Source: an uncultured virus (IMG/VR IMGVR_UViG_3300037137_000232)
Lineage: Duplodnaviria > Heunggongvirae > Uroviricota > Caudoviricetes
IMG/VR virus record: IMGVR_UViG_3300037137_000232
DNA: 64,000 nt
Strand: one strand, 5' to 3'
Part shown: in pieces, positions 1-62,731 of the stretch
Layout: each line of letters begins with the position of its first letter
Numbering within the stretch: position 1 is the stretch's first letter
Notes under the pieces: generated by a model
Databases searched by the model: none
Told to the model about the DNA's origin: nothing
What the model saw: only the letters and a program-made list of their open reading frames with translations
Position numbers and translations under genes: made by a program

Positions 1-76
1 GCGCAAGGATTCGATTCGCGCGCAGGTCTGTCACGACTTCGCGGTCAAGTTGACCGCCGCGTCCTAATCTAACGGG

Positions 77-100
77 GCGGTCGGGTGAAAACCCGACCGC
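77..100 (+). other. 10-bp stem hairpin with GAAA tetraloop
   Basis: GCGGTCGGGT-GAAA-ACCCGACCGC; no U-tract. Confidence 0.6.
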
Positions 101-107
101 GCGCATC

Positions 108-314
108 ATGGGCATCAGTGTGATGCATTACCAGTTAGACTGTGGGGAGAAAGACGCAAACACGCGACACACTACGCGCGTACAAGCCGCGATTGTGCGG
201 CATGCACATCACGAGATGACACTGCCGGAATACGTGGCAGAAATCGAACAGGCAGACATTGAGCACACTAACCTGATCGGCGACATGATCCGCCTCGTGC
301 TTCGCGCGCTTTGA
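108..314 (+). CDS. hypothetical protein
   Basis: 68-aa ORF followed directly by a terminator; start uncertain. Confidence 0.5.
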   Translation: MGISVMHYQLDCGEKDANTRHTTRVQAAIVRHAHHEMTLPEYVAEIEQADIEHTNLIGDMIRLVLRAL

Positions 315-320
315 TGTACT

Positions 321-355
321 GGCCACAACCCTTCGGGGTTGTGGCCTTTTTTTTT
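321..355 (+). terminator. Rho-independent terminator
   Basis: GGCCACAACCC-TTCG-GGGTTGTGGCC followed by T9. Confidence 0.92.
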
Positions 356-369
356 GTGCTCTCGACCCG

Positions 370-393
370 GACATCTGAGCATGCTCAGATGTC
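370..393. repeat. Palindrome copy 1 (24 bp, perfect)
   Basis: GACATCTGAGCATGCTCAGATGTC. Confidence 0.97.
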
Positions 394-500
394 GCGTACC
401 TTCGCGGTACTGTAGTAATCATGGTCTGTCATACATGTGCAGCAGGCAATACGCGCAATACGTACGCAGTAGCAACAACTCGCCTACCTCACATCCATCG

Positions 501-547
501 CGGGACTGTAGTAATACTGATGTAGCAGCATCTGAGCATGCTCAGAT
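501..547 (+). repeat. Motif variant CGGGACTGTAGT (501-512) plus palindrome copy 2 (530-547)
   Basis: ATCTGAGCATGCTCAGAT downstream of the motif. Confidence 0.95.
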
Positions 548-764
548 CACGTAGCAGGAACGGCAATACGTGTGTACCAGACAATATGCCTGTTTTCAGG
601 GTCAAGTCCTTGATTATGCTCCTATAACACATGACCTATATTTATGTAGGGGTAATACAGTACGGCATAAGTCGTTGAAAACCCTTTCTAATATACCTAC
701 CCATTCATTTAGTATTACTAGTATTAGATTAGACAACATATACCCCTGCTGTTTTTCCGCAACA

Positions 765-776
765 CGAGACTGTAGT
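765..776 (+). repeat. CGAGACTGTAGT motif, no adjacent palindrome
   Basis: Exact 12-mer match to the other copies. Confidence 0.9.
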
Positions 777-1000
777 GTGCGAACGGCATAATACCCAAGC
801 GTAGCAGCACCTCGAATTCCTTCCTACGCATCAAAATACCACCCACGTGGATGTCTCTCCGTGATCCCATACGTGAATAGCATGAAGTGAAAACAACCAA
901 GTCGGTGTAGTTGCTCCCTAAAAGCTCATCATATGTGGGGTAGGTAGTATTCCCAATTTCACACAACAGCCTGCCCCTTATGTACGACGTACGAAACCAC

Positions 1001-1029
1001 TTGCGTTTCAGCTACTTGTCACTTACACT
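1001..1029 (+). promoter_or_regulatory. Putative sigma70 promoter
   Basis: TTGCGT-17 bp-TACACT upstream of the ORF at 1074. Confidence 0.6.
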
Positions 1030-1073
1030 ATGGCCACGTCACCCCCACCAAACAAGAACCACAAGAGATTCGT

Positions 1074-1784
1074 ATGACACCAAAGCCACACGCAACACTC
1101 AGATACACGCAACACGCTTTGTTAACCGAGGTGGTTAAGTTAATCCGCCGCTATGAGAACTCACCTAGCTTCGCCAACTCGAACACTCTACGCACTGCCC
1201 AACGTGCCGTAACGCTACATGCGCGCAAGCTGTCGAAGTGCAGCCCAACCACTGATACTAAGGCCCGGCGCAAGCACGAGCGTGCGCTTTTCTACGCAAC
1301 AGCCAAACGCGACGCACTTGCCAAGCTCTTACGCGACAGTGAACCAACCTTCCGTATTGCGTCGATCACCACTCGCAACCGCCGTCGCGCACCCGGCGAG
1401 GCAGCCAAACTCGCCACCGCACGCTATCGACTCAAGGCAGCCACCATTGCCGTCCACAAGCTGACTAACCTATACACAAGTATCAAGGACGAGTGGAATG
1501 AGGCACGACGCGGCGTTGAGCAGGCCAAAGCCGAGCACGCCATGATCGTGCAGGACAACGAGCAGGCGCTCGCACAGCGCAGGCTTGCGCATGGGCTGAC
1601 TGCACATCGGCCGCGTGGCGCGCGAGCAGCACAGGCAACAGCATGGAAGGCATTGCGTGACGCCCGGTCGTTGGAGTTCGTGCGCGCGGCGCGATGGCGG
1701 CAGGCGTACACCAAGCTCACCACAGCGCGAGGCACGGTAGCGAAGTACCGTGAGCAGATCGAGCAGATCGAAAAATCTTTCTAG
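1074..1784 (+). CDS. Basic Arg/Ala-rich helical (coiled-coil-like) hypothetical protein
   Basis: 236-aa ORF with upstream promoter; very R/K/A-rich. Confidence 0.65.
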   Translation: MTPKPHATLRYTQHALLTEVVKLIRRYENSPSFANSNTLRTAQRAVTLHARKLSKCSPTTDTKARRKHERALFYATAKRDALAKLLRDSEPTFRIASITTRNRRRAPGEAAKLATARYRLKAATIAVHKLTNLYTSIKDEWNEARRGVEQAKAEHAMIVQDNEQALAQRRLAHGLTAHRPRGARAAQATAWKALRDARSLEFVRAARWRQAYTKLTTARGTVAKYREQIEQIEKSF

Positions 1785-1799
1785 TGAGGGCACAATCTA

Positions 1800-1829
1800 T
1801 TGACTCAACCCTACAGGTTGTGAGATAAT
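1800..1829 (+). promoter_or_regulatory. Putative sigma70 promoter (extended -10)
   Basis: TTGACT-18 bp-GATAAT with TG two bases upstream of the -10; palindrome about 30 bp downstream. Confidence 0.7.
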
Positions 1830-1862
1830 AGTAATGCAGTAGGAAATAGGGAGCCACCGGAC

Positions 1863-1880
1863 ATCTGAGCATGCTCAGAT
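1863..1880. repeat. Palindrome copy 3
   Basis: ATCTGAGCATGCTCAGAT, preceded by CCGGAC as in copies 1 and 8. Confidence 0.97.
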
Positions 1881-1981
1881 CGCCCGACTCCGGACAATTT
1901 GCAGATACGAAGTCAGCAGCAGCATCAGCAGGCCGATTGGCCTGCCTAGCAGCAAACGCAGGCGTAGCACGAGCAGGTGCG

Positions 1982-2167
1982 ATGATGAAAGGGCGCAAGT
2001 TAGAATCACTGGCCCGGCGACAAGGGAAACTCGATAGGCGAGCGCAGGTAGAGTTAACAATGCGCTACACTCCGAATCTCGACACCCTACTGACGCCTTC
2101 CCGCACAATTGCGCGACTACGGCATGGACAACGACCCTACCTGCGGGCGCGTGGTGCCAAGCACTGA
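1982..2167 (+). CDS. Small Arg-rich hypothetical protein
   Basis: MMKGRKLESLARRQ...; AGGTG upstream. Confidence 0.5.
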   Translation: MMKGRKLESLARRQGKLDRRAQVELTMRYTPNLDTLLTPSRTIARLRHGQRPYLRARGAKH

Positions 2168-2374
2168 CGGTGGCAGGGGATGCGAGGGCGCGCGATCAGC
2201 GCCGTGACCCGCGATCCTGCCCGGACTAGCGATCCGCAATTCGATCCGCACGCACACGTGCGCACCCTGCGACACGCTCGCCATGGGGCCAATGCCCTAA
2301 ACCAACATGATTGCGACAGCAGCAGGAAGATGAGCACGTGTGTCGTTGCGCCCCGCAGTTAGGGGGCTGCTTGA

Positions 2375-2402
2375 TGTACATCTAAGCATGCTCAGATGTA
2401 CA
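2375..2402. repeat. Palindrome copy 4 (28 bp, one mismatch)
   Basis: TGTACATCTAAGCATGCTCAGATGTACA. Confidence 0.95.
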
Positions 2403-2431
2403 GCTTCGAGCCTCTCAACCTTGGAGATTAC

Positions 2432-2677
2432 ATGATTAACAAACAGCAAGCGATGAGCGCCAAGCATGGCGACATCTTCTACCACCGCACCATGCGCAAC
2501 GCGGACGGCACACCGATGCGTGTGCGTGTGACCGGCCGTTGCAAGACGTGGAAAACCCGACCGGATGATTTCAGGTTGCCGGTGAAGCATGGCATGTACG
2601 ACAGCGGTGAAATCGATATCGGCAACTGTGACTACTGGTGCATGACTGAAGCACAGGTGGTGGTTGAGAGTGACTAG
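2432..2677 (+). CDS. hypothetical early protein
   Basis: GGAG RBS before ATG 2432; MINKQQAM...KTWKTRPDDFRLPVKHG. Confidence 0.75.
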   Translation: MINKQQAMSAKHGDIFYHRTMRNADGTPMRVRVTGRCKTWKTRPDDFRLPVKHGMYDSGEIDIGNCDYWCMTEAQVVVESD

Positions 2678-2739
2678 CACCACCACGACGACATCACCGT
2701 GAAAACGGAAGGCAAGAAGGTTGATTTCGAGGAGATGCG

Positions 2740-2904
2740 ATGAACAACGAAGAGCGGCGTATGTGGGTGTTGAATGACGCTGGATTGTATGAGTGGTGGC
2801 AGCGTACCTGCATGCCCATCACGAAATTCATACAGGACAATCGCGAGCAGATCGACGAGTGCATCAACCGCGAATTGAACAGGAAACCCAAGGAGGGACC
2901 ATGA
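2740..2904 (+). CDS. Small hypothetical protein (54 aa, below the ORF-track cutoff)
   Basis: GAGGAG RBS; MNNEERRMWVLNDAGLYEWWQR...; stop overlaps next ATG (ATGA). Confidence 0.7.
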   Translation: MNNEERRMWVLNDAGLYEWWQRTCMPITKFIQDNREQIDECINRELNRKPKEGP

Positions 2905-2999
2905 AACTCGTGCACTGGGTGGTGGACTGGGCGTATGCGGTCGCGTACGTCGTGGTTGTGAAGGTGGGCGAGTGGCTCGGCTTCTCGGAGGACGAGTAG
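2901..2999 (+). CDS. Small hydrophobic peptide
   Basis: AGGAGG RBS; MKLVHWVVDWAYAVAYVVVVKVGEWLGFSEDE. Confidence 0.55.
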   Translation: MKLVHWVVDWAYAVAYVVVVKVGEWLGFSEDE

Positions 3000-3001
3000 C
3001 G

Positions 3002-3043
3002 CGAGACTGTAGTCGATGTGTGGATGTCTGAGCATGCTCAGAT
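3002..3043 (+). repeat. CGAGACTGTAGT (3002-3013) plus palindrome copy 5 (3027-3042)
   Basis: Lies between stop 2999 and the RBS of 3059. Confidence 0.96.
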
Positions 3044-3058
3044 CAATGAGGAGACGAT

Positions 3059-3424
3059 ATGCGCCGACCAAAGGGTTGGTGGAGGTGGTACTTCACGTGT
3101 GTTGAGAGACTCGCACAACGTGCGTATGAAACCGCGATGATTGTGTCCGACAAAGATGTCAACTTCTCGTTGGAAGCCAAGCGTGATGTGCGCATCCGGC
3201 ATTACTGGCATGAGGCAGGACAGAACGAGAAGGGGCAAGACGTGTTCTACTGCTGGACAATCCGCAGAGATGCGTCCGGGCAGTATCGCACGTGGCGCGA
3301 GGTGCACACGCTGACTGAGATCAAGCGATACGATATTGTGTACAAGCGCACCAAGGCGCAGGCGGCGGAAGTCGCGCGCAAGCGGTACAACGCGTTCATC
3401 GAGATGACCACGAGCCGGAGATAG
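3059..3424 (+). CDS. hypothetical protein
   Basis: GAGGAG RBS; 121 aa. Confidence 0.75.
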   Translation: MRRPKGWWRWYFTCVERLAQRAYETAMIVSDKDVNFSLEAKRDVRIRHYWHEAGQNEKGQDVFYCWTIRRDASGQYRTWREVHTLTEIKRYDIVYKRTKAQAAEVARKRYNAFIEMTTSRR

Positions 3425-3506
3425 TGGATACGATCAATATCACATTCGCACCCGAGCCGGTTGATGCGGATGCAGTGCTGCGTGAGTGGATCGTGAAGGA
3501 GTGGGA

Positions 3507-4448
3507 ATGAACAACGTGCCGGTGTTTACACACATCGACGAGGCATTGAGTCAGTGGGCTGAAGCAACAAGGTTGTACCCACAAGTTCTATACGAGAAGT
3601 ACAAGGCACATCGTGCCAAGTACGGATGTAACGCGGAGACTGCATGTCGGTGGGCGAAGCAGAAGCCGCAGCCGAAATTCATCGACACATTGCCCTATTC
3701 GTATCGACCAACTTACGTGGATGTGCCCGGCATTGGCGCATTGAAATTCGAGTTGAAGGACGACAATGACTATAACTCAGATGACTATGATGAGCAAACA
3801 TTCCAGTGGGTAAAAGGAATGCACGATAACGAAGCTGCTAAACACTGTGGTGCGAAAATGGGTGAAAACATGTACTCACTCAACCATTGGGATCATGGTA
3901 GTGTGGCCGTGCTCTGCTTCGATAAAAAGTCAGGCGGCAGGTTCGAGGATCGCTATAAGTATCACGCAAGGAGTATGAGCAAGCAGGACGCGTACATCGC
4001 AGCGCAAGCATCAATCAAGGATGAATGCGAATATCGGCATCGAGTGGCAGAAGGCGATGTGTCGTGGGTGGGCGCGTGCGTCACGTTGTGGGAACCGGGC
4101 GAACCTGAGGATTTCAACGACCAGATCGAGGACGAGTGGAAAGAAATCGGGCAGGAAGAAGTGTGGGGCTTTGAGTACCCGGACAGCGAGGACTATCTAC
4201 TCGACACCATGAACGAATGGGCTGCGTCTTTGGTAGCAAAGCATTGGCAGCAAAAGTACGGGTGTGAAGCGCCCATGCCCGGCACCCAAGATGTAGTGGT
4301 GGACGCTGCGTGGAAGGCATGGCACACTTCTATGGTGGTGAGTAACAACGACCGCACCATCGCCGATCCTGTGTTCGTCTCAACCTACAAGGAGAAGTTG
4401 AATGCCGAGCGATTTCGTACTTGTCGGCTCGTTCAAGCGAGGGGATGA
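3507..4448 (+). CDS. Acidic hypothetical protein
   Basis: AAGGAG RBS before ATG 3507; about 313 aa. Confidence 0.8.
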   Translation: MNNVPVFTHIDEALSQWAEATRLYPQVLYEKYKAHRAKYGCNAETACRWAKQKPQPKFIDTLPYSYRPTYVDVPGIGALKFELKDDNDYNSDDYDEQTFQWVKGMHDNEAAKHCGAKMGENMYSLNHWDHGSVAVLCFDKKSGGRFEDRYKYHARSMSKQDAYIAAQASIKDECEYRHRVAEGDVSWVGACVTLWEPGEPEDFNDQIEDEWKEIGQEEVWGFEYPDSEDYLLDTMNEWAASLVAKHWQQKYGCEAPMPGTQDVVVDAAWKAWHTSMVVSNNDRTIADPVFVSTYKEKLNAERFRTCRLVQARG

Positions 4449-4635
4449 TGGGCTGTACTATGGCGCAGTAGCGAAGCAGGAAGGCAAGACGATGACTGTG
4501 CTGACTGTCGGTGTTGAACCGAACGAGTTCCTGATTCTTGAATGGATCAGGGATACCATCAAGATCATGCGCTCATCCGGACAGGATGATGTGCAGGCAC
4601 CCGACATGGTAGATCGTGCCGGGCATGTGCACTGA
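4402..4635 (+). CDS. hypothetical protein
   Basis: AAGGAG RBS; 77 aa. Confidence 0.65.
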   Translation: MPSDFVLVGSFKRGDDGLYYGAVAKQEGKTMTVLTVGVEPNEFLILEWIRDTIKIMRSSGQDDVQAPDMVDRAGHVH

Positions 4636-4664
4636 CCTATGCGCGGGGGTTGTCCGCGTGGGGA

Positions 4665-4765
4665 TTCGCCGTCCTCGTGGAACACAGGAACCATGATCTA
4701 GTGTAAGCCACACAGATGAGCCTGCGGGTGTACCACGTACCATGGCAGGGACGAAAAACGGCGAA
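4665..4765 (+). ncRNA. Putative structured RNA, hammerhead-like three-way junction (non-canonical core)
   Basis: TTCGCCGT/ACGGCGAA closing stem, GTC, GTGG/CCAC stem, CAGATGAG, CCTGC/GCAGG stem, CGAAAAAC. Confidence 0.35.
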
Positions 4766-4808
4766 CATGGGGGTGGGAGGCAGCAGTACATCGCTGCCGA
4801 AACCAAAT

Positions 4809-4820
4809 CGAGACTGTAGT
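4809..4820 (+). repeat. CGAGACTGTAGT motif
   Basis: Exact match. Confidence 0.9.
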
Positions 4821-4828
4821 TTGTTCAA

Positions 4829-4994
4829 TGTTGGGTGCGTGTGTGGAGTTCGTCTGCTGCCAAGATTCAGGCGAGCCGTTGAGCGTACGACTGGTTAGTA
4901 CAGAACATCGTAGTCGAGGCTTGGGGGCGAACATAACGGGGCGTCCAATCAGGCATAGAGCGTTGCAACGCCCACAAGCATACGTTACCCAACA
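4829..4994 (+). ncRNA. Putative multibranch structured ncRNA
   Basis: Nested complementary segments TGTTGGGT/ACCCAACA, GCGTGTG/CATACGT, GTTCGTC/GGCGAAC, CCAAG/CTTGG, CGACT/AGTCG. Confidence 0.45.
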
Positions 4995-5001
4995 CCCATA
5001 C

Positions 5002-5019
5002 ATCTGAGCATGCTCAGAT
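5002..5019. repeat. Palindrome copy 6
   Basis: ATCTGAGCATGCTCAGAT, 17 bp before ATG 5037. Confidence 0.97.
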
Positions 5020-5036
5020 CAACCAGAGGGGGTGAT

Positions 5037-5429
5037 ATGAATCTCAAGGAAGCCAAGCTGCTCCGTAAGACGGCCATGTCGATGTCGTTACCCGGCGAGC
5101 CGAAGTCGCAGTTGGTAATGTCGAAGCAGCAGTGCAACCCGTGGTACAACTCAGTCACGAAGAAAACCGAGACGCGCACCGCATACTGCGCTGTCAACAA
5201 CCCGCACTCGTTCCGGGGGCGTTACCGCAATCTCAAGAGCGGGCGCAGCATCGACGTGCGGCGCATCGAAGCGGCGGGGCGCGACATCGAAGCGATGAAA
5301 GCGATGCACACCACGACAAGCACGCGCAGCCCGGTGGTGACGGCTATCGAACGCAAGTCGGCATTCGCAGTCTTGCGTGAGAAGGTCAACAAGATCGTCA
5401 AGCGCATGTTCCGACATCAACATCGGTGA
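5037..5429 (+). CDS. Basic hypothetical protein
   Basis: GAGGGGGTG RBS; MNLKEAKLLRK... Confidence 0.7.
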   Translation: MNLKEAKLLRKTAMSMSLPGEPKSQLVMSKQQCNPWYNSVTKKTETRTAYCAVNNPHSFRGRYRNLKSGRSIDVRRIEAAGRDIEAMKAMHTTTSTRSPVVTAIERKSAFAVLREKVNKIVKRMFRHQHR

Positions 5430-5433
5430 CATC

Positions 5434-5757
5434 GTGGTGAAGCGTTTCAACCCGAAGGATTTCGGGTTGCCTGTTACCTTACCCAATGCGGATATACCGA
5501 CAGTGCTCCCACTGCCGAAGCTGCCGCATTCACGAAAGGAATTCACAAAGTCTGAAGCAGCGTGGAAAGCGTATGACGCTGCAATGGTGGTCTCTGATGG
5601 AGATCGTGTACTAGCCGACCGTGTGTATCAAGCGGTCATCAACCAAAAGAGGAGTCGAAATGACGACGAGCATTCGCAAGACAGTGATGTTGGGAAGTCT
5701 GTCGATCAGCTTCCCGGCGATGCGCAAGAACGCGAAGGACGTGGCGAGAAAAGCTGA
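5434..5757 (+). CDS. hypothetical protein sharing a motif with 3507-4448
   Basis: AAWKAYDAAMVVSDGDRVLADRVY; start uncertain; 3' end overlaps the next gene. Confidence 0.5.
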   Translation: MVKRFNPKDFGLPVTLPNADIPTVLPLPKLPHSRKEFTKSEAAWKAYDAAMVVSDGDRVLADRVYQAVINQKRSRNDDEHSQDSDVGKSVDQLPGDAQEREGRGEKS

Positions 5758-6565
5758 AGTCGATGCCAATGCGAAGAACGGCACGATTACAGCCGCGAAA
5801 CATCTGATGTCCGGTGTGATAGAGCATGAGGCATGCGCCAAGCGCATCGCGTTGCTGCGTACGTGGTGGGCGTCGGTAAGCCTGCCATGGTTCGACAGCA
5901 AGGGCGCACCGCGTGCCGTCAATGCGCTCGGCGTGACGGATTTGCAGGTGGAGATTGGTGGTCACGTGCGCGAGATCACCGAGTTGTGGAAGGCGTTCAT
6001 GTCGAAGTATCCGGAGCTTCGCGCACATCGGCAGTATGAAATGGGTGCGTTCTTCGATGCGCGCGAGTTTCCATCACCGCAGGAGATGCAGCGTCGGTTC
6101 GCCATTCGCGTGGACTGGTACCCGCTGCCCGACACGCAGGACATCCGTGTGATGGACGGCATCAGCCCGGAAGATGCGAAGCGGCTTGCTGATGACGCAG
6201 CGGAAAGCGAGCGTAAGCGGCTCGCGTTTGCGATGGGTGCGGCGGCGAAGAAGCTGTACAAAGCGGTGAAGAGCATGCACGACACGATGGCTACGCCCAT
6301 CGGCGAGAAGGGTGCGAAGTTCAACGACACCAAGCTCGACAACATCCTCGCCATTGCCGAGTTGATCCCGTCACTCAACTTGACCAATGATCCGAAGCTC
6401 GCAGCACTGGCGAAGGAAGCGAAGAAGCTTGCAACCAAGTCGCCGGGTGAGTTGCGCGAGGATGAGGTGAAGCGCAAGGCGGCGGCGAAGGAAGCCGAAG
6501 GACTCGCAGCCAAGCTCGCCGGGATGTTCACGGCCGACGACGATGCCGATGACGACGAGGCGTGA
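5660..6565 (+). CDS. DUF3150-like protein
   Basis: GAGGAG RBS; SLPWFD, KAFMSKYP, REFPSPQEMQRRF, LIPSLNLTNDPKL resemble DUF3150-type proteins found beside AAA/vWA genes (recalled, not searched). Confidence 0.6.
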   Translation: MTTSIRKTVMLGSLSISFPAMRKNAKDVARKAEVDANAKNGTITAAKHLMSGVIEHEACAKRIALLRTWWASVSLPWFDSKGAPRAVNALGVTDLQVEIGGHVREITELWKAFMSKYPELRAHRQYEMGAFFDAREFPSPQEMQRRFAIRVDWYPLPDTQDIRVMDGISPEDAKRLADDAAESERKRLAFAMGAAAKKLYKAVKSMHDTMATPIGEKGAKFNDTKLDNILAIAELIPSLNLTNDPKLAALAKEAKKLATKSPGELREDEVKRKAAAKEAEGLAAKLAGMFTADDDADDDEA

Positions 6566-6788
6566 GCCAGACGACACGCGATGGATCGGGTACTCGGCGT
6601 GGGCGCAGGACAAGGAAGGTGTGTGGCATCTGGTGTCAGGGTACGGTATCGTTTTGCCGTGCCCCGCATCCTTCACGGTTGATGAATATGGGATGCCTCC
6701 ACTTCATGCGCTAATATGCAGAGTATGTTTGCGCGCACTACCTGATGAAGTGAGTGCGTGGATGCTGCAACGGGAGATGGAATCGTGA
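6543..6788 (+). CDS. Small H-C-CxxC zinc-finger-like protein, paralog 1
   Basis: WAQDKEGVWH...C...CRVC. Confidence 0.6.
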   Translation: MPMTTRREPDDTRWIGYSAWAQDKEGVWHLVSGYGIVLPCPASFTVDEYGMPPLHALICRVCLRALPDEVSAWMLQREMES

Positions 6789-7015
6789 GCAAACTCATTC
6801 CCGGCTTCAAGAGTTCAGTAGCAGAAGGATGGGCGCGCGACCATAACGGTATCTGGCATCGTGTCACTACACGCAACCACCCAGACACAGGCATATGGCG
6901 CATGGAGTGTAGTGGTGGGGTACTTGTGCGCACATTGATGCCATCAGCTAAACCACCGAACGAGTGGTGCGCATTGTGTAAGAAAGTAATCACACGCCGA
7001 GTGGTGGAGGAATGA
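6785..7015 (+). CDS. Zinc-finger-like paralog 2
   Basis: GTG start overlapping the upstream stop; WARDHNGIWH...C...CALC...TRRVVEE. Confidence 0.7.
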   Translation: MSKLIPGFKSSVAEGWARDHNGIWHRVTTRNHPDTGIWRMECSGGVLVRTLMPSAKPPNEWCALCKKVITRRVVEE

Positions 7016-7209
7016 AGGACATTGCGGTAAATGCGGGGGATGGGTGGGTGAAGGGCACAACTACATGGCATGTGTTTACGTCTCAAGGATTTATCCTTTG
7101 TAAAACGAATGTGCCATTGTCGCATGAAGTATGGCCGTGGTTGCCTAAAGGCGCAGTGATCTGCAGGCGTTGCCGTCCTTACTTAACCCGTAAGATTGTG
7201 GAGGAATGA
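7012..7209 (+). CDS. Zinc-finger-like paralog 3
   Basis: GGAGG RBS; WVKGTTTWH...C...CRRC...TRKIVEE. Confidence 0.7.
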   Translation: MKDIAVNAGDGWVKGTTTWHVFTSQGFILCKTNVPLSHEVWPWLPKGAVICRRCRPYLTRKIVEE

Positions 7210-7433
7210 TGAAAATCGCCATCGTACCAGTCTCGATGATGACCGAGCAACTCAAGTTGTGGAGGGCTGAACGTGAAGTCGAAGAAGCTACCGGGGTGTT
7301 GGATCGCCGTGTCGAAGGTAACGCAAAAGCCCGCGCCAATCTCCTCAATCGGCAACGTGATCTCTTCGACTATCAGACCCGCATCGAAACGGCACGTGCC
7401 AACATTGCACGTGTCCTCAGTCGTCATGAGTAA
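7206..7433 (+). CDS. Small coiled-coil hypothetical protein
   Basis: GGAGG RBS, ATGA coupling. Confidence 0.7.
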   Translation: MMKIAIVPVSMMTEQLKLWRAEREVEEATGVLDRRVEGNAKARANLLNRQRDLFDYQTRIETARANIARVLSRHE

Positions 7434-7641
7434 GTACGTGTGGATGAAGTGCAGGACACAGTGGCATGCGTATCGGGTGTGCATGCCGCCGGGGCGGTAC
7501 CAGATCATGTGCCGCCGCACGTACTCGAATGCACCCGAAATGTGGGGGGCAGTGGGAGTACCGATAGATGGGTTCCCGATCTGCCAACGCTGTCGCATTA
7601 ACGTAACTAAGGAGGTTGTGGAAGCAGACACGAGACTGTAG
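7426..7641 (+). CDS. Zinc-finger-like paralog 4
   Basis: WMKCRTQWH...C...CQRC...TKEVVEA. Confidence 0.7.
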   Translation: MSKYVWMKCRTQWHAYRVCMPPGRYQIMCRRTYSNAPEMWGAVGVPIDGFPICQRCRINVTKEVVEADTRL

Positions 7642-7671
7642 TTGTAGCGCATGATCTGAGCATGCTCAGAT
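7631..7671 (+). repeat. CGAGACTGTAGT (7631-7642) plus palindrome copy 7 (7654-7671)
   Basis: The motif supplies the TAG stop of the upstream gene; the palindrome precedes the RBS of the AAA ATPase. Confidence 0.97.
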
Positions 7672-7696
7672 GTCCTAAACCAAACAGGAGAAAGCA

Positions 7697-8824
7697 ATGA
7701 GCACACTGCACATCAAGCAACTTCCGCGAGCAATCGCACTGTCGTATCAAGCAGGCACCAACCTGCTGCTCACGAGCAAGCCTGCGACTGGCAAGTCGGA
7801 GACCACGTTCAAGACGGCGCAGACCATGGCCGAACGGATCGAGGGCTTCGGTTACTGGCCGTTCGATGTGGGCACGGCGAACCCGAACGACGTGGCGGCG
7901 TACATGCCGAACATGGAGACGGGCAAGCTGCAAGTGTTCGCCAACAGTGTGTTGCCGAATGCGTATGACAACCCGGACACCAAGGGCATCGTGTTCATCG
8001 ACGAGGTGATGAACGGCGACCCGGCGACGGTGAAGGTGTTCCAGAAGTACATCAATGGCGAGGACATCAGCGGCAAGCTGCGTAAGCCGGTCGGTGTCAT
8101 CATTATCGCCGCGTCAAATCGGATGATGGACAAAGCCGGTGCGATGCAGCAGTCGCGTGCGTTCATGTCGCGGATCGAGCAGTTGGAAATCTACTCGGAC
8201 GCGGGGCACAATCTGCACTTCATGGACGACGACTCGTGGTGGCCGGTGCTGCGCAAGTTTTTGGAGAAGTTCCCCGACTTGATCGACAACTACGAGACGG
8301 TGTTCAACGTCGATGAGGACAAGAAGAAGCGCACTACCGATGAGGTTGCGGAGCAGGGTGAAGAGGGCAAGCGTGGCGTGTGGGCCAACATGCGCTCATG
8401 GAAGCGCATCAGCAAGTTGGAATACGCGGCGCAGTTGCTGCACATCCCGCTCGATGCGTGCCGGATCACATCGAACGTCGGCAAAGCGGTGGGCACGCAG
8501 TACAACACCTATCGTGCGATGTTCGACAAGATCGCGTCGGTTGAAGAAATTCTGAAAGACCCGAAGGGTGTGGAAATTCCGAAGAAAATCGACGAGTTGT
8601 TCGTCATGGTCTGCATGCTGTCGCAGTTGGTGAAGGCGACGGAGATGAAGCCTGCGGCGACATTCGTTGACCGGCTGCAGGGCGATATGCGTGCGTTGGC
8701 GATCCGTAGGATGGTGAAGCGGTCGCAGAAGAATCGTGCGGAATTCGACATCGGCGCGACGAAGGAATACCACGCGTGGATGAAAGACCCGTCGATCCAA
8801 GACCTGTTCATGGCGGCGAGGTAG
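7697..8824 (+). CDS. MoxR-like AAA+ ATPase
   Basis: Walker A SKPATGKS, Walker B IVFIDE, sensor IIAASNR, Arg finger AFMSRI. Confidence 0.88.
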   Translation: MSTLHIKQLPRAIALSYQAGTNLLLTSKPATGKSETTFKTAQTMAERIEGFGYWPFDVGTANPNDVAAYMPNMETGKLQVFANSVLPNAYDNPDTKGIVFIDEVMNGDPATVKVFQKYINGEDISGKLRKPVGVIIIAASNRMMDKAGAMQQSRAFMSRIEQLEIYSDAGHNLHFMDDDSWWPVLRKFLEKFPDLIDNYETVFNVDEDKKKRTTDEVAEQGEEGKRGVWANMRSWKRISKLEYAAQLLHIPLDACRITSNVGKAVGTQYNTYRAMFDKIASVEEILKDPKGVEIPKKIDELFVMVCMLSQLVKATEMKPAATFVDRLQGDMRALAIRRMVKRSQKNRAEFDIGATKEYHAWMKDPSIQDLFMAAR

Positions 8825-8827
8825 ATC

Positions 8828-8944
8828 ATGGGGTATAAGGTGCGCACAACGAAGCGAGAATGGTATCTCAACGGTGGCTTCGCCAACCCCAAGAATTACC
8901 GCCGCATGCGTGGTGGAGCTTGGACATACTGGTTCATTCTTTAG
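8828..8944 (+). CDS. Small hypothetical peptide (38 aa)
   Basis: MGYKVRTTKREWYLNGGFANPKNYRRMRGGAWTYWFIL fills the gap between AAA and vWA genes; GAGG upstream. Confidence 0.45.
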   Translation: MGYKVRTTKREWYLNGGFANPKNYRRMRGGAWTYWFIL

Positions 8945-8954
8945 GGGGCTAACC

Positions 8955-10298
8955 ATGGCACGTGACACGTGTGTGGCAACAGCCGCTGTCAGGCTGATGC
9001 TGTACTACCCATTCTGGTGTGAGTTGTATTACACCATGAAGATCATCGAGACGCTGCGTGTGCCGACGTTGGCAACTGACGGGCGCAACATGTTCGTCAA
9101 CCCGAAGTTTTGGGACACGCTCACGCTCGACTACCGTGTCTCCGCGCTCGCGCATGAGGTGTGCCACAAGATGTTGCATCACTGCACGCGCGGCCGGGGG
9201 CACGATCCATACTGGGCCAACATCGCCATGGACATCGTGGTCAACACGCTGTTGGCGGCGAACGGGTTCAAGATTCACAAGAACTGGGTGCAGCCCGACC
9301 AGAAGTACGCGGGGTGGACGTACGAGGCTGTCTACCATGATATTACCAAGGACTTGCAGCAGCCCCCGCCGCAGCCGCAGGGGGGTGAAGGTACCACCCC
9401 GCCCCCACAAGAGGACGACGGTGACGAGAAACAGCCCGGCGGTGGTGCCAGAGAGGAGGGCGAGGATGGGGATGAAGAGGGGCAAGAAGGGAAGGGATCG
9501 CCGCAAGAAGAATCGTCGGATGGAGAGGGCGAGGGTGAAGGCGATCCGGAAGGCGAGGGCGATGGTGGCACGGGGTATTGTGACCGGTCGGACATCCCGA
9601 AGAAGTATCAGGGCGCTTGGAAGGATGTGAAGCAGTACATCGGCACGCCCGAACAGGTTGAAGCGTTCGAGGAGAAGATCGAGCAGCAGGTGCAGCAGGC
9701 AATCGCTGCAGCCAAGGCGATGGGTCATGCTCCGGCCGGGATCGAGGCAGCAGTGGTCAAGGCGACGAGAGTGGCCGAAGAGAAGTGGTTCGATCACCTG
9801 CAACGCTACTTCCAGTCGATGCGTCAGGCTGAGTATGACTGGGCGCGCATCAACCGTAGATATGCAGCAATCCATCGGGTTGTGGCTCCGGTGCAGTACA
9901 CCGAGCGGCTTGGCAAGGTGGTGATCTTTGTCGATGCGTCAGGGTCGTGTTGGGACAAGATGATTCAGTCTTGTTTCGCATCGCACATCAACGCGATACT
10001 GGCAGAAGCGCAGCCCGAAGAGACGCATGTCGCGTACTTCGACACCATAGTACACAAGCATGTGATAGTCGATCCGGGCAATATCGAGTTCGAGGAAGCG
10101 CCGAGTGGTGGTGGCGGCACGTCGATCCGTTGGATGGCCGAGTGGCTCGAATCGGAAGGTATCGAACCGGCGGTCGTGATCGTGCTGACCGACATGTACA
10201 TCGACTTTCCGGTGGTCGAGCCGCCGTGTCCGGTAATTTGGGCGAGCATCACACCGAAGTTGGAAGCGCCGTTTGGCGAAACGATTCACGTCAAGTAA
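8955..10298 (+). CDS. Zincin metallopeptidase plus vWA-domain protein (DUF2201-like)
   Basis: TLATDG, LAHEVCH (HExxH), NIAMDIVVN, acidic G/E linker, MIDAS VDASGS, GGGTS, VLTD. Confidence 0.9.
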   Translation: MARDTCVATAAVRLMLYYPFWCELYYTMKIIETLRVPTLATDGRNMFVNPKFWDTLTLDYRVSALAHEVCHKMLHHCTRGRGHDPYWANIAMDIVVNTLLAANGFKIHKNWVQPDQKYAGWTYEAVYHDITKDLQQPPPQPQGGEGTTPPPQEDDGDEKQPGGGAREEGEDGDEEGQEGKGSPQEESSDGEGEGEGDPEGEGDGGTGYCDRSDIPKKYQGAWKDVKQYIGTPEQVEAFEEKIEQQVQQAIAAAKAMGHAPAGIEAAVVKATRVAEEKWFDHLQRYFQSMRQAEYDWARINRRYAAIHRVVAPVQYTERLGKVVIFVDASGSCWDKMIQSCFASHINAILAEAQPEETHVAYFDTIVHKHVIVDPGNIEFEEAPSGGGGTSIRWMAEWLESEGIEPAVVIVLTDMYIDFPVVEPPCPVIWASITPKLEAPFGETIHVK

Positions 10299-10307
10299 GG
10301 AGGCAGA

Positions 10308-10523
10308 ATGAAAACTACTAAAGGAGGTAACGTGGTAGCGAAGAACGCACTACGCACTACGCAGCGCAGGTTCAGCACGGATGAGATGGGGTCTGCTGTT
10401 AAGCAGGTGCAGGAGTTCATCGGTGACGTGCTAACCAAGGGTACCGCTGTTGACATCAGCATTGTCGATGATCGTGGCGGGCAAGGCACCATCAACGTGT
10501 ACGTCACACAACCAAGGGGGTAG
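10308..10523 (+). CDS. hypothetical protein
   Basis: AGGAGG RBS; start may be GTG 10332. Confidence 0.65.
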   Translation: MKTTKGGNVVAKNALRTTQRRFSTDEMGSAVKQVQEFIGDVLTKGTAVDISIVDDRGGQGTINVYVTQPRG

Positions 10524-10525
10524 TC

Positions 10526-11104
10526 ATGGCTGAAAAGAAAGCAGCAAAGCCGAAGTTTGAACGGTATCGCACCGTACAAGGTTCGGTTGGGCAGTTCATC
10601 TCCGATGGGTTCAGCGAGATCGAGGGACTGGGTGAAGAGTTCCGCGAAATCTGCGACAACACGTCGGAGAATCTGCAGCAGACCGATGTGTACAATCGAC
10701 GCGACGAAACGGCGAGTGCGTGCGAAGGCTTGTCCGAGCCGAGCATCAACAGCAGCATTCTCGAAGAACTGGATGCGTCGTACTCGTGCGACATGGGCAA
10801 GACGTATCGTGGTCGGCAGACGCAATCACGGGCATGTCGTGCGAGTAACGCCGCATCAGCTTTGCGCGCGGCGGGTGAGTCGATCCGTGCGTGGCTCGAA
10901 GCCAACGAGGAACTGTCGGATACGGACGACACCGACTCAGCATCATTGCGTGCTCGCGCCGACAAGCTGCAGGAATTGGAAGCAGCAGGCATCAACGCCG
11001 ACGACTACGAGAATGCGCGTGAAGAAGCCGACGAGGTTGCGGATGAGTGCGACAGCATCGCCGACGAGATTGAAGGGATGGACTGGCCGGGGATGTTCGG
11101 ATGA
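10526..11104 (+). CDS. Highly acidic helical protein
   Basis: 192 aa, very D/E-rich. Confidence 0.8.
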   Translation: MAEKKAAKPKFERYRTVQGSVGQFISDGFSEIEGLGEEFREICDNTSENLQQTDVYNRRDETASACEGLSEPSINSSILEELDASYSCDMGKTYRGRQTQSRACRASNAASALRAAGESIRAWLEANEELSDTDDTDSASLRARADKLQELEAAGINADDYENAREEADEVADECDSIADEIEGMDWPGMFG

Positions 11105-11307
11105 AGCTGAAACTCTTTAACGGAACGCTGATCTCCCTGTCATTGCAAGTGATTACAGGTGGGTACGATCCGGAGCAGGGCTGTACCACGTTCGTAGTGC
11201 GTGGTTATGGGGAACAAGCGGGCACACTACAGATGTCCGTGCCCGAAGCAGTGAAGTTTGTCGGCCTGTTGTCGAATCTCCCGAAGGTCGAAAAGGTAGT
11301 GGAGTAG
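11101..11307 (+). CDS. hypothetical protein
   Basis: ATGA coupling. Confidence 0.6.
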   Translation: MKLKLFNGTLISLSLQVITGGYDPEQGCTTFVVRGYGEQAGTLQMSVPEAVKFVGLLSNLPKVEKVVE

Positions 11308-11332
11308 TACAACCAAAACAGGAGAGCACACC

Positions 11333-11653
11333 ATGAAATTGACAGCGACAGCATTCTATTCGGCAGTGACCGACAAGAGATGCAGTATCGACACCGCGCT
11401 TGAAGCGATCCGGCGATGGGGTGTCCCGTTCGATGAGAACGAGATCGGTCATCGCAAGCGTGGTATCGACATCGTGCACTTGGCAGCAGCACAAGCGAAG
11501 TATGCCGAAGAAATGGCGGCTCGTGCCGAACGCAAGAATGCCGAGGCAACGCGCAAGGTGGCACGAATGGTATCAAACGACGTGGTGGTGGAGCGACTGG
11601 ATCGCATCATCGTCCTGCTCGATGCGCTGTACAAGGTTGCCATCAAAACGTGA
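11333..11653 (+). CDS. hypothetical protein
   Basis: AGGAGAG RBS. Confidence 0.75.
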   Translation: MKLTATAFYSAVTDKRCSIDTALEAIRRWGVPFDENEIGHRKRGIDIVHLAAAQAKYAEEMAARAERKNAEATRKVARMVSNDVVVERLDRIIVLLDALYKVAIKT

Positions 11654-11697
11654 CGAGACTGTAGTGACCGGACATCTGAGCATGCTCAGATGTCCGG
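11654..11697 (+). repeat. CGAGACTGTAGT (11654-11665) plus palindrome copy 8 (11668-11697, 30 bp perfect)
   Basis: CCGGACATCTGAGCATGCTCAGATGTCCGG; the motif starts directly after a TGA stop. Confidence 0.98.
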
Positions 11698-13349: not shown

Positions 13350-13378
13350 TTGACAACTCAACCAGTTTAGTTTACATT
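13350..13378 (+). promoter_or_regulatory. sigma70 promoter for the replication module
   Basis: TTGACA-17 bp-TACATT. Confidence 0.8.
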
Positions 13379-13424: not shown

Positions 13425-13655
13425 ATGAGCACACCAACGCTGAAGAAAACTACCGAGTACAAGAAGGTACTCGCCTACATCGCCAAGTGCATCGAACTGA
13501 AGTACGGCACGATGGCCGAGTACGCGCGCAAGGAGGACGTGTCGCAGCAGTACATCAGCAACGTGATGGGCGGCGGCAAGGCGATCCCCGACTGGATGTA
13601 CAAGCGGTTCAAGATCAAGCACGTCGTGCTTGAACACTGGGAAGTGATGGTGTAA
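13425..13655 (+). CDS. Cro/XRE-like helix-turn-helix protein
   Basis: TMAEYARKEDVSQQYISNVMGG HTH pattern; GAGGAG RBS. Confidence 0.75.
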   Translation: MSTPTLKKTTEYKKVLAYIAKCIELKYGTMAEYARKEDVSQQYISNVMGGGKAIPDWMYKRFKIKHVVLEHWEVMV

Positions 13656-46127: not shown

Positions 46128-49100
46128 TCATTTTATATTAGCAAATGAATAGCGATCCAGTTGAGGAAGATAACGTGGCAACGCGGGAATGTCGGATTCA
46201 GTAGCACCTGCAATTGCACGTTGCTTGGCACGCAACATCATCCCCGCAGCGGGGTCAATATGCAATGCCGGGTTCTGCATATTGAACAGCATCACAGCCT
46301 GCAACTCTTTCGTTGTATCTTCGCCATTCTCCTGTGCGCGGTAAAAGTTGTTTGAGAGGACAGTTTTTTGTTGTTTCAACAACCCAATACGTTGTTGAAA
46401 CGCGAAGTTCACTTCAGACTGCTCGGCCTTCACTGACGGAGTAAACCCAAATGCTTGCGACACCGTAGCCCACGGTGTGACTTCGATAGGCAGCCGATTG
46501 CCTGTGGATGTGGTGTACCCCTGCTCCTGCATCTTTTCGGCCTTGACCGGCCCCTTTAACGCAAGCGGGAGCATGTCGATCAGACCATCCATGACCTGAC
46601 CATCCATCATTTTTCCAAGTCCTACGAATGCTGAAGTACCGGCACTCACTGCCGGGCCAAGCAAATTGAATGCACCACTTTCCATTTTGTTCTTAATGTC
46701 ACGGCGATCCGCCATGAATCTCGAACCCGGCAGAAGGTCTTGCAACCCCATGCGCCCACCTGTATCGAAGCCGAGCACTGCGCGCGGTACACCATGCGCG
46801 ATGCCTTCTGCCAGTTCTTTCCCGAATACGTCGGCAAGCCACCCACGATATGCCGTCTTACTATCAGTTGGGTTGTTCCCATCACTGGCAAGATCGGACA
46901 CCCTATCCACCAGAGCACTGATCGCAGTAGCCAATGGCAGCCCCAACGTACCGGCAATGATGCTCGTGGTGGTGAGCACACCAGCAAGCGCCTTGAACCC
47001 TGCTACACGGTCCTCATGGCTCGCGTGAGGAGACACTGCATCAGCAGTCAGTCGAATCAGCAACTCCATCGTCTGAAACGAATACTGTTGGAACGACGCG
47101 AGCAACGGTGTTACTTTCCCTGCCAAACCATGACGACCAAGCGCACGCGCGGTGTTATTGTCGTTGTAGTTGAACTGTGTTTCGCGCACAGTGTCGATGG
47201 CGTAACGCGAAGCAAATTCATCCGTCTTACCACGCCGAATCGCCAAGTTGTACGCCGTCAACCCGGCGGTCAACCTGTTAATCACTTCAGTGTAGTGACT
47301 CCCCGCACTCAACATCTTGGTCGCAACCATCTGCCGTGAGTCAACACCTGATGCCATGCGACCAAGCTCGTGGCCTTGCGTCGTATCAAGCTGTCCGGAA
47401 TCGAGCAGCTTCTGCACGAACGCACGTTCCTGCGGCAACAACCCGGACTTCTCAAGCGGAAGTGATAAGTCAAGCACACCGCGAATTGCACCGTGCATGC
47501 CACCGAGTTCCTGCCCTTGGTTCCATCCAGACTCAATGGCGCTCTTCACCAACTTGAATGACTTGGCGCTCGACACACCCATCTCTTTCGCGGTGGCAAT
47601 GAACCCATACCGACTGCCGATCACTGGTAATGTCAAGTGATACGGTTGCACCATGTTCGTCAACCAGAACGCCGGGCTGAATGCGAGAAAATAGTTGAAT
47701 CCGAACGACTTCAATACGTCGATATTCGGTGATACCACAGGACTCATGCTGTTCGAGAAACGACGGCTCATCTCCGTCATCACCTCTTCCGCATAATCCG
47801 CATGCTCCGGTCCACCTACGCCCACTTCACGTAGCTTGTCGATTGTCTGCTTCATCGAACCGAATGCTTCATCGTACTTCGGCATCGCATACCCATTGGC
47901 AACCATCGACGCCATGCCCTCCGCACGCTTGGAGAAGTTGCGCACGAAGTCCGCATCTGCGCCGGGTACGCCTGTACCCTTACGTTGTGCGAGCGCCTTT
48001 TGCGCCGACGAATCCGGAAGCGCATCGAGATACTGACGCTTCAAGTACGCACGCATGTCGGCTTTATCTTTACCCGCAAATTGCGGATCAGAGTCGATAC
48101 GTGCCAACAGGTTGTGCACGAATTTCGGCACACCCTGCATGTGGTTCATTGAGTCGGAATCATGCAAACTGCCTGCACGCAAGAACTCCTGCGGAACGCT
48201 GTTGGGCATAGCGAGCAACTTGGCATACGCAGCACTCCGTTGTGCCGGATTCTCGAATCGCAGCATCACGGTGCGATCAGCATTCGGTAGGTTAATGACC
48301 TTACCGAATGGCTGAATTGCCTGTTGCATGGCTCCCCAATGCTGTGCTCCATCCGCAACTTTGTACGAGATGAAGTATTCACCAGAGCGACCCAAGTGCA
48401 TATACGGGTTGCTGACAGCCGTCAAATAATACTTCTCGATGTCACGCACACTCGCGCGCAAATTTCCTTTGTCGCCTTGCACCGCCATCGCGTCAGTCAG
48501 CGTCTTGCGCACAAGCTTGTCGAGATTATCCGAATACGGATCGAAGTAATAATCAGGACGCGAGTTCGTACCTTCACCCAACGCTTTATTGCCGATGGCA
48601 AGAACGTCAATCATCTTCTGCAGTTGCGGCGACTTATCGGAGTAGATGCGCAACGTGTCACGTAGCATCATCGCCGTGTGTTGGATGTAGTTCTTCCGAA
48701 ACACACGGAACGACTCCTCGAACGGTTTCCGAAACTCTTCAGGCAACTGCTTATACTCTGCGATTCGTTGGGCGATGTACCCCTTGTTCGATGGGTCGAT
48801 CTTCGGATTCAAGTGCATGTTCTCGCCGTAACTCTTCGAGAAATCTACACCCAATGTAGTTGAATCATACGCGAACTCCATCAACTGCCTATTCATACTT
48901 TCGCGTCGTGACGCGGGCAGCTTTGACAATGCCAGTTGCAGCGGCATCGTCACTGCGTTGCTAAACTCAAGTTGTTTCGTCTGACGCATCATTCCCTTGA
49001 TGTCATCAGCATTCATGTACGCGTGCATGCCCGGCACAAGTGTGCGTAGTGCAGGAACCTTGTCCACCCACTTTGCCATGTTGAACGTCGTAGACGCCTG

Positions 49101-52100: not shown

Positions 52101-53198
52101 GTTCGATGCTTCGAGCGCATTCATCCGCCACTCGCGTGCTTCGTCCTTCCCAACAAGAGGTTCAAGCTGCGGCACCAGTTCACGCGTTGCCGCCTGAATC
52201 TGCAATGGGGTTGATTCCGGATTCTCGGCGATCTTGATAAGCGATGCGTTACGTTGCTGATGCACGTAATGTGTCATAGCACCAATCGGTGCAAGAATGC
52301 CCGTTAACGCAAGCATCGGCCCAATGGACGATGTGGCAGCGTCCCATGGCGAAGTAGATGGCAACCCGGCCTGCCCTTCAAGCGCCGCCGTTCCGGCAGC
52401 TTGGGTCATGCCCGCGCTCACCTGCACACCTGTGTTGGTTGCAAGTTCGCGCGCAAATGACTTGATGAACTCTGGTTCACGTATCTTGGCGAGCGCCTCT
52501 GGCACACCGTACGTGCGGCCGAGCACGCGCGGGATCATGCGCTCCGCACCACTGATGAACCGACCGCCAAGACCCACTCCTACGGTCTGCACGGCAGCCG
52601 TAAGCGCCCCTTCCTGCCGCGCGAGAGTCTTGGCCTCATCCTCGGACTTCCCCGCCGCTTTGGCTCGCTCGTACGCTTCCTGTGCTGCTTGTGTACCAAA
52701 GGCCAATCCGCCGAGCGCACCACCCCCGATGGCTGCTACCCCCGCCGGAGCACCGAGAGCGGCCAGTGCAGGTACCGCCGCCATCGCCCCAAGGGTCGGC
52801 GCAACCATCTCCGCACCCTTAGTAAGCGCCCCCACAACCGCGCCATGTGCGTCAGGGTTCACATCCTCGGCGATCCCCGCCTCGCGGAGCTTGGCACGAC
52901 TTACCAACCCAGTGCCAATATCATGCAGCGTGTCACCGGGTTGCCCGGTGTACTGCATGATCTGCCCGGCCATGGTAGGAATACCCACCGTAGCACCACG
53001 CACCAAACCCGCGCCGATCTCACCCAACGCACCACGCGGTTTATTCTCTAATTCTATTTGCTTATCTATCCACGCTTTCTGTGAATCAGAAAGCTTGTCG
53101 TATGCAGACAACTTTGGAACCGGTGGCTCAACCGGTTTTGGCATTAAGGGGATCGGCATCGACAGATATTGGTCGATGCTTGGCAAGTCCAATGGCAT
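46128..53198 (-). CDS. Large polyvalent virion (ejection) protein with zincin metallopeptidase domain
   Basis: 2356 aa; [12 protein letters not shown]...VHETTH...EFVAEALSN; helical C-terminus resembling large-polyvalent-protein domains. Confidence 0.8.
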
Positions 53199-62585: not shown

Positions 62586-62731
62586 CAGTGTGCCTTTGCA
62601 GCAACGATCTTCAGCACCATTTTAGCGAAGTTTTCGACGAGTGTTTCCACCGAAACATCGCCTTGCCCTGCACGGTTGATGCACCACTGCGCAAGTTGCT
62701 CGGCAAGAACAACGATGGATGCCTGTTCCAC
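62585..62731 (-). CDS. hypothetical protein
   Basis: GTG start overlapping the upstream TAG. Confidence 0.5.
   Translation of the reverse strand: MEQASIVVLAEQLAQWCINRAGQGDVSVETLVENFAKMVLKIVAAKAH

Follow-up and report, generated by a model that had tools for sequence, protein, structure and literature searches.

The 64,000-nucleotide stretch of DNA analysed here (the window) belongs to an uncultured podovirus-like virus, IMG/VR record IMGVR_UViG_3300037137_000232, which has a genome of about 65 kb and was recovered from sediment metagenomes. Our subject is an array of short palindromes in its early region and the phage protein that may read them. The plus strand carries the early and replication arm, with genes for a MoxR-like ATPase, a VWA-metallopeptidase, DNA polymerase A, a helicase and a primase; the virion genes lie on the minus strand. 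The closest cultured phage is Pseudomonas phage Rollin (46% at the terminase), the nearest record (G001) spans the late arm only, and Burkholderia anthina carries a distant relative as a provirus. A 10,904-nt contig spanning positions 1-5594, found in two runs, shows that the genome continues leftward of position 1 for at least 5,310 nt. If circular, the genome would measure about 65.7 kb, with about 1.7 kb outside the window. No integrase match was found among the open reading frames (ORFs) of the window, of which 65 were compared with PHROGs and 53 with Pfam.

The 16-mer TCTGAGCATGCTCAGA occurs exactly at seven places (374, 531, 1864, 3027, 5003, 7655 and 11675), and an eighth copy, at 2381, carries a single change, G>A at 2384. 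An earlier account made from the letters alone (the sequence-only reading) had described eight palindromes with a core invariant save for one G>A, all intergenic and none beyond 11.7 kb. All of this stands: the perfect extents are identical, with one mismatch in 2375-2402, and none of the eight overlaps a called gene. The sole later match (21976, three mismatches, within a gene) is at chance level. Against these nine matches at up to three mismatches, shuffled sequences average 0.28 and never exceed 2; none of 100 shuffles reaches nine. Five of the eight palindromes lie 16-35 nt upstream of a ribosome-binding site (RBS) and start codon, so the five copies counted earlier are real and their range is somewhat wider than the 15-30 bp given. 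The copy said to lie just downstream of a sigma70 promoter, that at 1864, does so. Flanks are partly common to different copies, and an outer GACA...TGTC frame surrounds the longest ones. Eight is probably a minimum, because the genome runs on to the left of position 1, where relatives hold a further copy. Elsewhere the exact motif was never found as an array, with 8 single matches in viral_contigs and 4 in genome_contigs, the latter being single, scattered matches to the 18-bp site among 185,579 prokaryote genomes. The palindromes gave no Rfam match at gathering score; the motif is thus neither a host repeat nor an Rfam RNA.

A second motif, G[AG][GT]ACTGTAGT, was missed by the sequence-only reading. 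This directional (TGTAGT) motif has seven copies, all on the plus strand, from 406 to 11665, where 0.55 would be expected for a wider version of the pattern. Four of the seven lie 9-18 nt ahead of a palindrome core, one 182 nt ahead and one 16 nt after (Table 1). The wider pattern recurs in relatives (G002 6, G010 6, L059 4, L057 3, L055 1, L058 1; the G010 matches include one end duplicate, one on the opposite strand and one within a gene), L019 carries a variant, and a scan of G003-G009, G011 and RHph_TM27A found none. The directional motif evolves more slowly than the palindrome. Its orientation with transcription and its frequent position after a stop codon point to a probable promoter element, as does the copy at 4810, where a structured stretch starts about 10 nt downstream in the two sequences compared. 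A phage RNA polymerase that might read it had no match among the ORFs compared with PHROGs and Pfam, and the 2356-amino-acid virion protein, considered for this role, has no convincing catalytic motif.

Table 1. Positions of the palindromes, directional motifs and associated features in the window.
Feature	Position	Strand	Remarks
First early gene, tail	2..67	+	last 21 codons and stop; remainder off-window
Intrinsic terminator	321..356	+	ends first transcription unit; same hairpin type 3' of first gene in relatives
Palindrome 1	370..393		24-bp perfect; directly after terminator
Directional motif 1	406..416	+	16 nt past palindrome 1
Directional motif 2	502..512	+	18 nt ahead of palindrome 2 core
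Palindrome 2	530..547		18 bp
Directional motif 3	766..776	+	no palindrome near
Sigma70-type promoter	1800..1829	+	TTGACT-18-GATAAT; like site at equivalent place in L057 (by eye) and L013
Palindrome 3	1863..1880		starts 34 nt after -10 box of 1800..1829 promoter; ortholog L057:692
Palindrome 4	2375..2402		carries G>A mismatch; 35 nt upstream of ATG 2432
Directional motif 4	3003..3013	+	13 nt ahead of palindrome 5
Palindrome 5	3027..3042		16 nt upstream of ATG 3059
Directional motif 5	4810..4820	+	182 nt ahead of palindrome core; then structured non-coding stretch, then palindrome 6
Palindrome 6	5002..5019		18 nt upstream of ATG 5037; ortholog L057:4151
Directional motif 6	7632..7642	+	12 nt ahead of palindrome 7
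Palindrome 7	7654..7671		26 nt upstream of MoxR-like ATPase gene; orthologs L057:6334, L013:11859
Directional motif 7	11655..11665	+	9 nt ahead of palindrome 8
Palindrome 8	11668..11697		30-bp perfect; 23 nt upstream of ATG 11714; ortholog L013:14989
Small XRE/Cro-like helix-turn-helix gene	13425..13655	+	sigma70 promoter 13350-13378 ahead

The array is a property of the family, and its sequence is a property of the lineage. Related loci were fetched with a conserved 301-amino-acid early protein (134 loci, 91 of them at least 8 kb long), the ATPase protein having found none as a query. At least five copies of one dyad are present in 37 of the 91, and in none of the 91 after shuffling, which is a weak null for coding DNA. 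In two complete genomes the palindromes keep to the early arm (8 of 8 in G002, 7 of 7 in G012), which supports the earlier proposal of a dedicated cis-acting system limited to that arm. L057, the closest relative, with 70-83% DNA identity over the aligned blocks, carries five copies of TCTAGGCATGCCTAGA, three of them within blocks aligning to window sites 1864, 5003 and 7655. Its palindrome differs from that of the window by a mirrored double change present in every copy: TCTGA-GCATGC-TCAGA in the window is TCTAG-GCATGC-CTAGA in L057, L055, L056 and L192. Further versions are CCTAT- in L058, GTTT- in L231, GTGT- in L199 and GTGTTA-ACGCGT in G002. Copy numbers at up to two mismatches reach 19 (L121) and 16 (L115), and some relatives have copies away from gene starts. 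More distant genomes (G003, G004, G006, G007, G008, G010) have longer versions of 27-30 bp, in 5-11 copies, whose spacers are free and which share the outer GACA...TGTC frame; in G003 and G004 the spacers vary among copies within the genome, and one G003 copy lies beyond the early arm, ahead of the primase. G009 has at least two degenerate copies. A literature search, with supplements outside its scope, found nothing relevant on such repeats in this phage group.

Other dyads occur in the wider group. The Rhizobium phage RHph_TM27A (L011), a distant cultured relative, has GTTACC-N6-GGTAAC at 22 intergenic places over 45 kb, not confined to the early arm; phage Rollin (L009/L010) has five copies of a 25-bp dyad near the record ends; and G007 (6180-61678) has a second, genome-wide dyad, GTTAGGA-N-TCCTAAC, with seven intergenic copies alongside its early-arm dyad.

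Every palindrome folds and five stand shortly before a start codon, which would suit hairpins in RNA that act ahead of the RBS in processing, stabilisation or translation, and a few relatives have oriented centres. The sequence-only reading had listed this option; the mismatches disfavour it. Mismatched pairs on the sense strand comprise 47 G-U and 51 A-C (p = 0.76; 23 genomes or loci, two of the loci almost identical, with consensus and thresholds set by hand); a further 70 mismatches were of other kinds, and 1,592 pairs were intact. In G011 (8 CA, 6 TG), L094 (4 and 4), L076 (4 and 4) and likewise L019, asymmetric centres are found in both orientations, and in many lineages the centre is 0-1 nt or self-complementary. 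As G-U pairs show no excess and asymmetric centres occur both ways, a double-stranded DNA site is the better reading. Moreover, the sequence itself, beyond its pairing, is fixed within a genome, only two of the eight window contexts fold better than z = -2, and copies upstream of -35 boxes are untranscribed from that promoter. RNA hairpins seem very unlikely to be the explanation, and the palindrome is, with high probability, a DNA site bound by protein. Cruciform signals alone, another of the earlier options, would leave unexplained why a sequence is common to all copies within a genome yet changes from one genome to another.

Copies could also stay identical with no reader, by recombination, if the sites served to shuffle early genes, as exchange points or as mobile promoter cassettes. 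L057 has different genes from the window between the sites at 2381 and 3027, and two palindromes flank its block (by eye); the partly common flanks fit as well, and the 29-30-bp variable-spacer versions of G003 and G004 have a layout that we take to resemble recombinase core sites. For Cluster O mycobacteriophages, recombination from repeat to repeat is reported in the available part of the source (PMC4351075). On the other side, no recombinase match was found among the window ORFs, and contigs of four runs show no joint at the palindromes, although rare forms are lost from contigs. In L055, gene insertions lie distant from palindromes (by eye), spacers differ among copies within G003 and G004, and the co-variation with the first early gene described below would go unexplained. 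Recombination as the purpose of the sites, which the sequence-only reading had also raised, thus has little support and we regard it as highly improbable. Occasional exchange between copies is probable and may help to keep them identical, as a secondary process.

A host regulator, LexA-like or ParB-like, whose sites differ as the hosts differ, is the least plausible explanation. ParB-type sites are typically loop-less 16-bp dyads. The near-absence of the 18-bp site from prokaryote genomes speaks against a host regulator, as does the finding that phages 70-83% identical in DNA bear different versions, with dozens of versions in one family. Neither the 53 window ORFs nor the first-gene proteins gave a ParB match, and ParA-like genes occur only in G003 and G004.

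The first early gene is the candidate reader. From terminase-anchored loci with longer upstream flanks (44 of 80), the common left end reads: small terminase gene, control region, palindrome, sigma70 promoter, first gene, terminator, further palindrome. In relatives the first gene encodes a lysine- and alanine-rich protein of 190-270 amino acids. Started from four of these proteins, an iterative profile converged at 24 records, representing 17 distinct sequences; the best reversed decoy scored E = 1.8. Against a profile of the C-terminal part in three close relatives, positions 2-67 of the window were the best of 2119 six-frame segments (E = 8e-4); against the whole-family profile they scored only E = 1.4. 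A palindrome sits 13-24 nt ahead of the -35 box of the first-gene promoter in L013, L059, L192, L199 and L231, and 37 nt past its -10 box in L019. Six relatives (L192, L195, L231, L194, L059, L013) also have, just left of the first palindrome, a conserved G-run/C-run block followed by an A-run and a short dyad; the block is possibly a packaging start or genome end.

Palindrome similarity tracks the N-terminal domain of this protein. Over 10 lineages the Mantel correlation is rho = 0.49 (p = 0.0007), and it stays at 0.48 (p = 0.002) given the terminase proteins TerS and TerL; L195 and L231 were left out because their terminase is cut, and an 11-lineage version gave rho = 0.54. There is no such tracking for the C-terminal domain (rho = 0.07), TerS (0.01) or TerL (0.16). 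The L192 protein, which has no matching cultured phage, was modelled as a homodimer through residues 13-111 of the N-terminal domain with a score of 0.85, the best of three controls scoring 0.00; 20 of 30 solved pairs attained this mark, as did 1 of 23 single chains. Between runs, at least 66% of contacts agreed, and pLDDT (predicted local distance difference test) was at least 74. One nearly invariant arginine, R112, falls outside the listed interface residues. The model supports a first-gene product that forms a homodimer, and we consider it fairly likely that this product reads the palindromes.

A different phage protein could do so, chiefly the small XRE/Cro-like protein encoded at 13425-13655, which would be made from the next promoter and shut the early arm off. 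It is the sole helix-turn-helix candidate recognised in the window (0.95 to an XRE cluster in the atlas; PHROG repressor, E = 0.003), its gene position suits an early-to-middle switch, and it is present in G002, G012 and G013. It was found in only 3 of 14 records searched, though most of those without a match carry arrays. Its putative recognition helix is nearly the same in the window (SQQYISNVM) and in G012 (SLQYISNVM) while the palindromes differ, and its own promoter has no palindrome. We judge this reader improbable. A conserved helix-turn-helix gene before the primase, seen in seven relatives, is not in the window. The 301-amino-acid early protein, also considered, has a confident model without a fold match in the PDB and no family match, and was kept only as an anchor.

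We propose, at slightly better than even confidence, that the palindromes are double-stranded DNA operators for a phage-encoded homodimer, most likely the first-gene product, that represses the early arm; operators for a dimeric phage protein were also among the options of the sequence-only reading, and fit best. Host RNA polymerase would transcribe the first gene from the sigma70 promoter at the left end of the arm. The dimer would then bind beside its own promoter and just downstream of other early promoters (the one at 1800, of sigma70 type, and probably also the directional motif), and would turn the early arm down. Since site and protein change together between lineages, each phage lineage would have its private site.

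That the main effect is repression is itself moderately likely. The same sites and dimer could have another job: activation of the early promoters, or coating, looping or shielding of the early (possibly first-entering) DNA, or self-marking against co-infecting relatives. In five relatives the copy at the first-gene promoter lies upstream of the -35 box, a position also used by activators; some relatives have many copies, some of them distant from gene starts (L121, L115); and the lineage-private sequences suggest selection for specificity. Most other copies, however, lie between a promoter-like element and an RBS, the customary place of a repressor site, and the spacing of 9 to 54 nt between site and directional motif fits activation poorly. 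A role other than repression is rather unlikely, though not negligibly so.

Several observations weigh against a first-gene operator system. Sites 374, 531 and 2381 show no clear layout of promoter, site and gene. Fewer than five copies are present in 54 of the 91 loci, and the 91 include near-duplicates. Centres are oriented in L132 (fixed, 7 of 7), L121 (13 A, 5 T), L115 and L131 (both skewed). The Mantel test is small, with half-sites set by hand, and three lineages rest on a single site; minus these cases rho falls to 0.32 (p = 0.046, n = 8). Its controls were TerS and TerL and no other early-arm gene, so shared early-arm ancestry may contribute. The window's own first gene lies off-window, and both the co-variation and the dimer model were obtained with relatives. 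Pfam, PHROGs and PDB sequences yielded no recognisable DNA-binding family for the first-gene proteins. In the distant clade (G003-G010) the syntenic first gene has 113 relatives and a confident two-domain helical model, whose best structural comparison, at Z 7.2 with helical bundles, is not a fold match; its link to the family of the window's clade is weak (hhalign, 24.7%, 44 C-terminal columns), and early profile comparisons with that clade were negative. No Pfam family was consistent over 87 members, and of the named atlas clusters the two nearest, DUF3102 (0.78) and phiC31 repressor c (0.76), both fall below the bar.

Arrays of this description are known from other phages. In the early region of the Streptomyces phage phiC31, repressor-bound inverted repeats are interleaved with directional promoters; phiC31 is a temperate siphovirus with an integrase, and no sequence relationship to it is detectable here. 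Among the window ORFs, representing part of the genome, no integrase or repressor tied to the sites had a match. Microbacterium Cluster EG phages carry 8-10 intergenic 18-bp inverted repeats, 14-22 bp before starts in one arm, and the available part of the source identifies no repressor or integrase and assigns the repeats no function (PMC7302621). The likeness is a multi-copy 18-bp dyad in short intergenic gaps before starts in one arm. In contrast, sequence and phages are unrelated, the EG site is constant in three genomes whereas ours varies between close relatives, and the same text proposes no reader and mentions no paired directional motif.

Cluster O mycobacteriophages have 17-bp dyads with predicted binding of a dimeric protein, as far as the accessible text goes (PMC4351075). 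They share with the present array invariant arms, an orientation-free centre and phages that are not obviously temperate; they differ in having more than 30 copies genome-wide, a third of them intragenic and most unlinked to promoters, against eight intergenic copies in the early arm here. As a multi-copy 17-18-bp intergenic dyad near starts, in phages for which no repressor is recognised, the present array belongs with EG and O by description only. In Cluster K, the start-associated sequences (SAS) and their extended form (ESAS) are proposed to bind a regulator, and are similar and functionally unexplained in the parts of the sources consulted (PMC3203893, PMC11373665, PMC12699233). There too a directional motif and an inverted repeat precede non-structural genes, and the consensus varies between subclusters. 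SAS, however, is the RBS and follows the repeat, whereas here the directional motif is not an RBS and precedes a perfect palindrome; ESAS arms are imperfect 17-bp repeats with a 4-14-bp spacer overlapping a SigA promoter, and our palindrome has no spacer and no conserved RBS motif after it. Cluster A phages carry 20-30 asymmetric 13-mer stoperators per genome, oriented with transcription, according to the sections available (PMC6550527). As there, many sites would serve one phage protein, and motif and repressor co-diverge in Cluster A, setting specificity; site and protein co-diverge here too (rho 0.49, n = 10), as a correlation in a small sample. Cluster A sites, by contrast, are asymmetric, and their reader is the helix-turn-helix immunity repressor of a temperate phage; ours is a perfect dyad, and the asymmetric, oriented 11-bp motif is a separate element.

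Other features of the region and family stand apart from the array. A conserved non-coding stretch (4830-4993; 83% identical to L057 3983-4149) separates directional motif 5 from palindrome 6. Its ends pair as a long stem, and 3 of 51 predicted pairs are changed on both sides between the two sequences; it is a possible leader or small RNA and had no Rfam match. A second such stretch, between palindromes 3 and 4 (2085-2345; L057 880-1158, 76%; L013 8180-8385), gave an unconvincing consensus fold. A promoter-like TTGCGT-17-TACACT (1001-1029) precedes a basic 236-amino-acid gene at 1074 (by eye) with no adjoining palindrome. The trio of 301-amino-acid protein, MoxR-like ATPase and VWA-metallopeptidase (5660-10298) is conserved across the family. 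On the minus strand, the 2356-amino-acid virion protein (46128-53198) has a DarB-like C-terminal part, an HExxH motif near residue 1189 and an N-terminal half without assignment, and a 94-amino-acid gene (62731-63015) clusters with a G002 protein matching the Acb2/Tad1 hairpin domain (E = 1e-18); its product is likely a nucleotide-signal sponge against CBASS or Thoeris defence. GGATCC and GTCGAC are missing from the whole 64 kb, which suggests restriction-site avoidance; GCATGC is not avoided. ParA-like, resolvase, AlpA, TrfA and H-NS-like genes at G003 6825-7891 and 46278-47065 and at G004 4715-8281 suggest that these two are phage-plasmids. Because they encode ParA-like and replication or resolvase proteins, some members of the family are probably temperate.

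The type of array is already published (Clusters EG, O and K) and its function there is unexplained; for dyad arrays at early genes in several actinophage clusters, the available text of the reports assigns no reader or function (PMC7302621, PMC4351075, PMC11373665). Here the array is real, varies by lineage and has a testable reader: a candidate can now be put forward, and nature supplies cognate as well as non-cognate pairs (for example L192, L231, L199, G002). If the first-gene product is the reader, it would represent a DNA-binding family unmatched in Pfam, PHROGs and PDB sequences, and would show how a block of early genes is kept under one switch while its sequence code drifts. More tentatively, and at well below even confidence, the first gene of this large uncultured phage group may encode all-helical dimers that bind DNA sequence-specifically and belong to a family not recognised so far; with its private array it would form a fast-evolving self/non-self code over the whole early arm. 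Were this so, the dozens of natural protein-site pairs would constitute an orthogonal set. A resident phage would silence incoming phages of the same specificity, while others would be spared or escape, and the code would operate even in phages with no sign of lysogeny.

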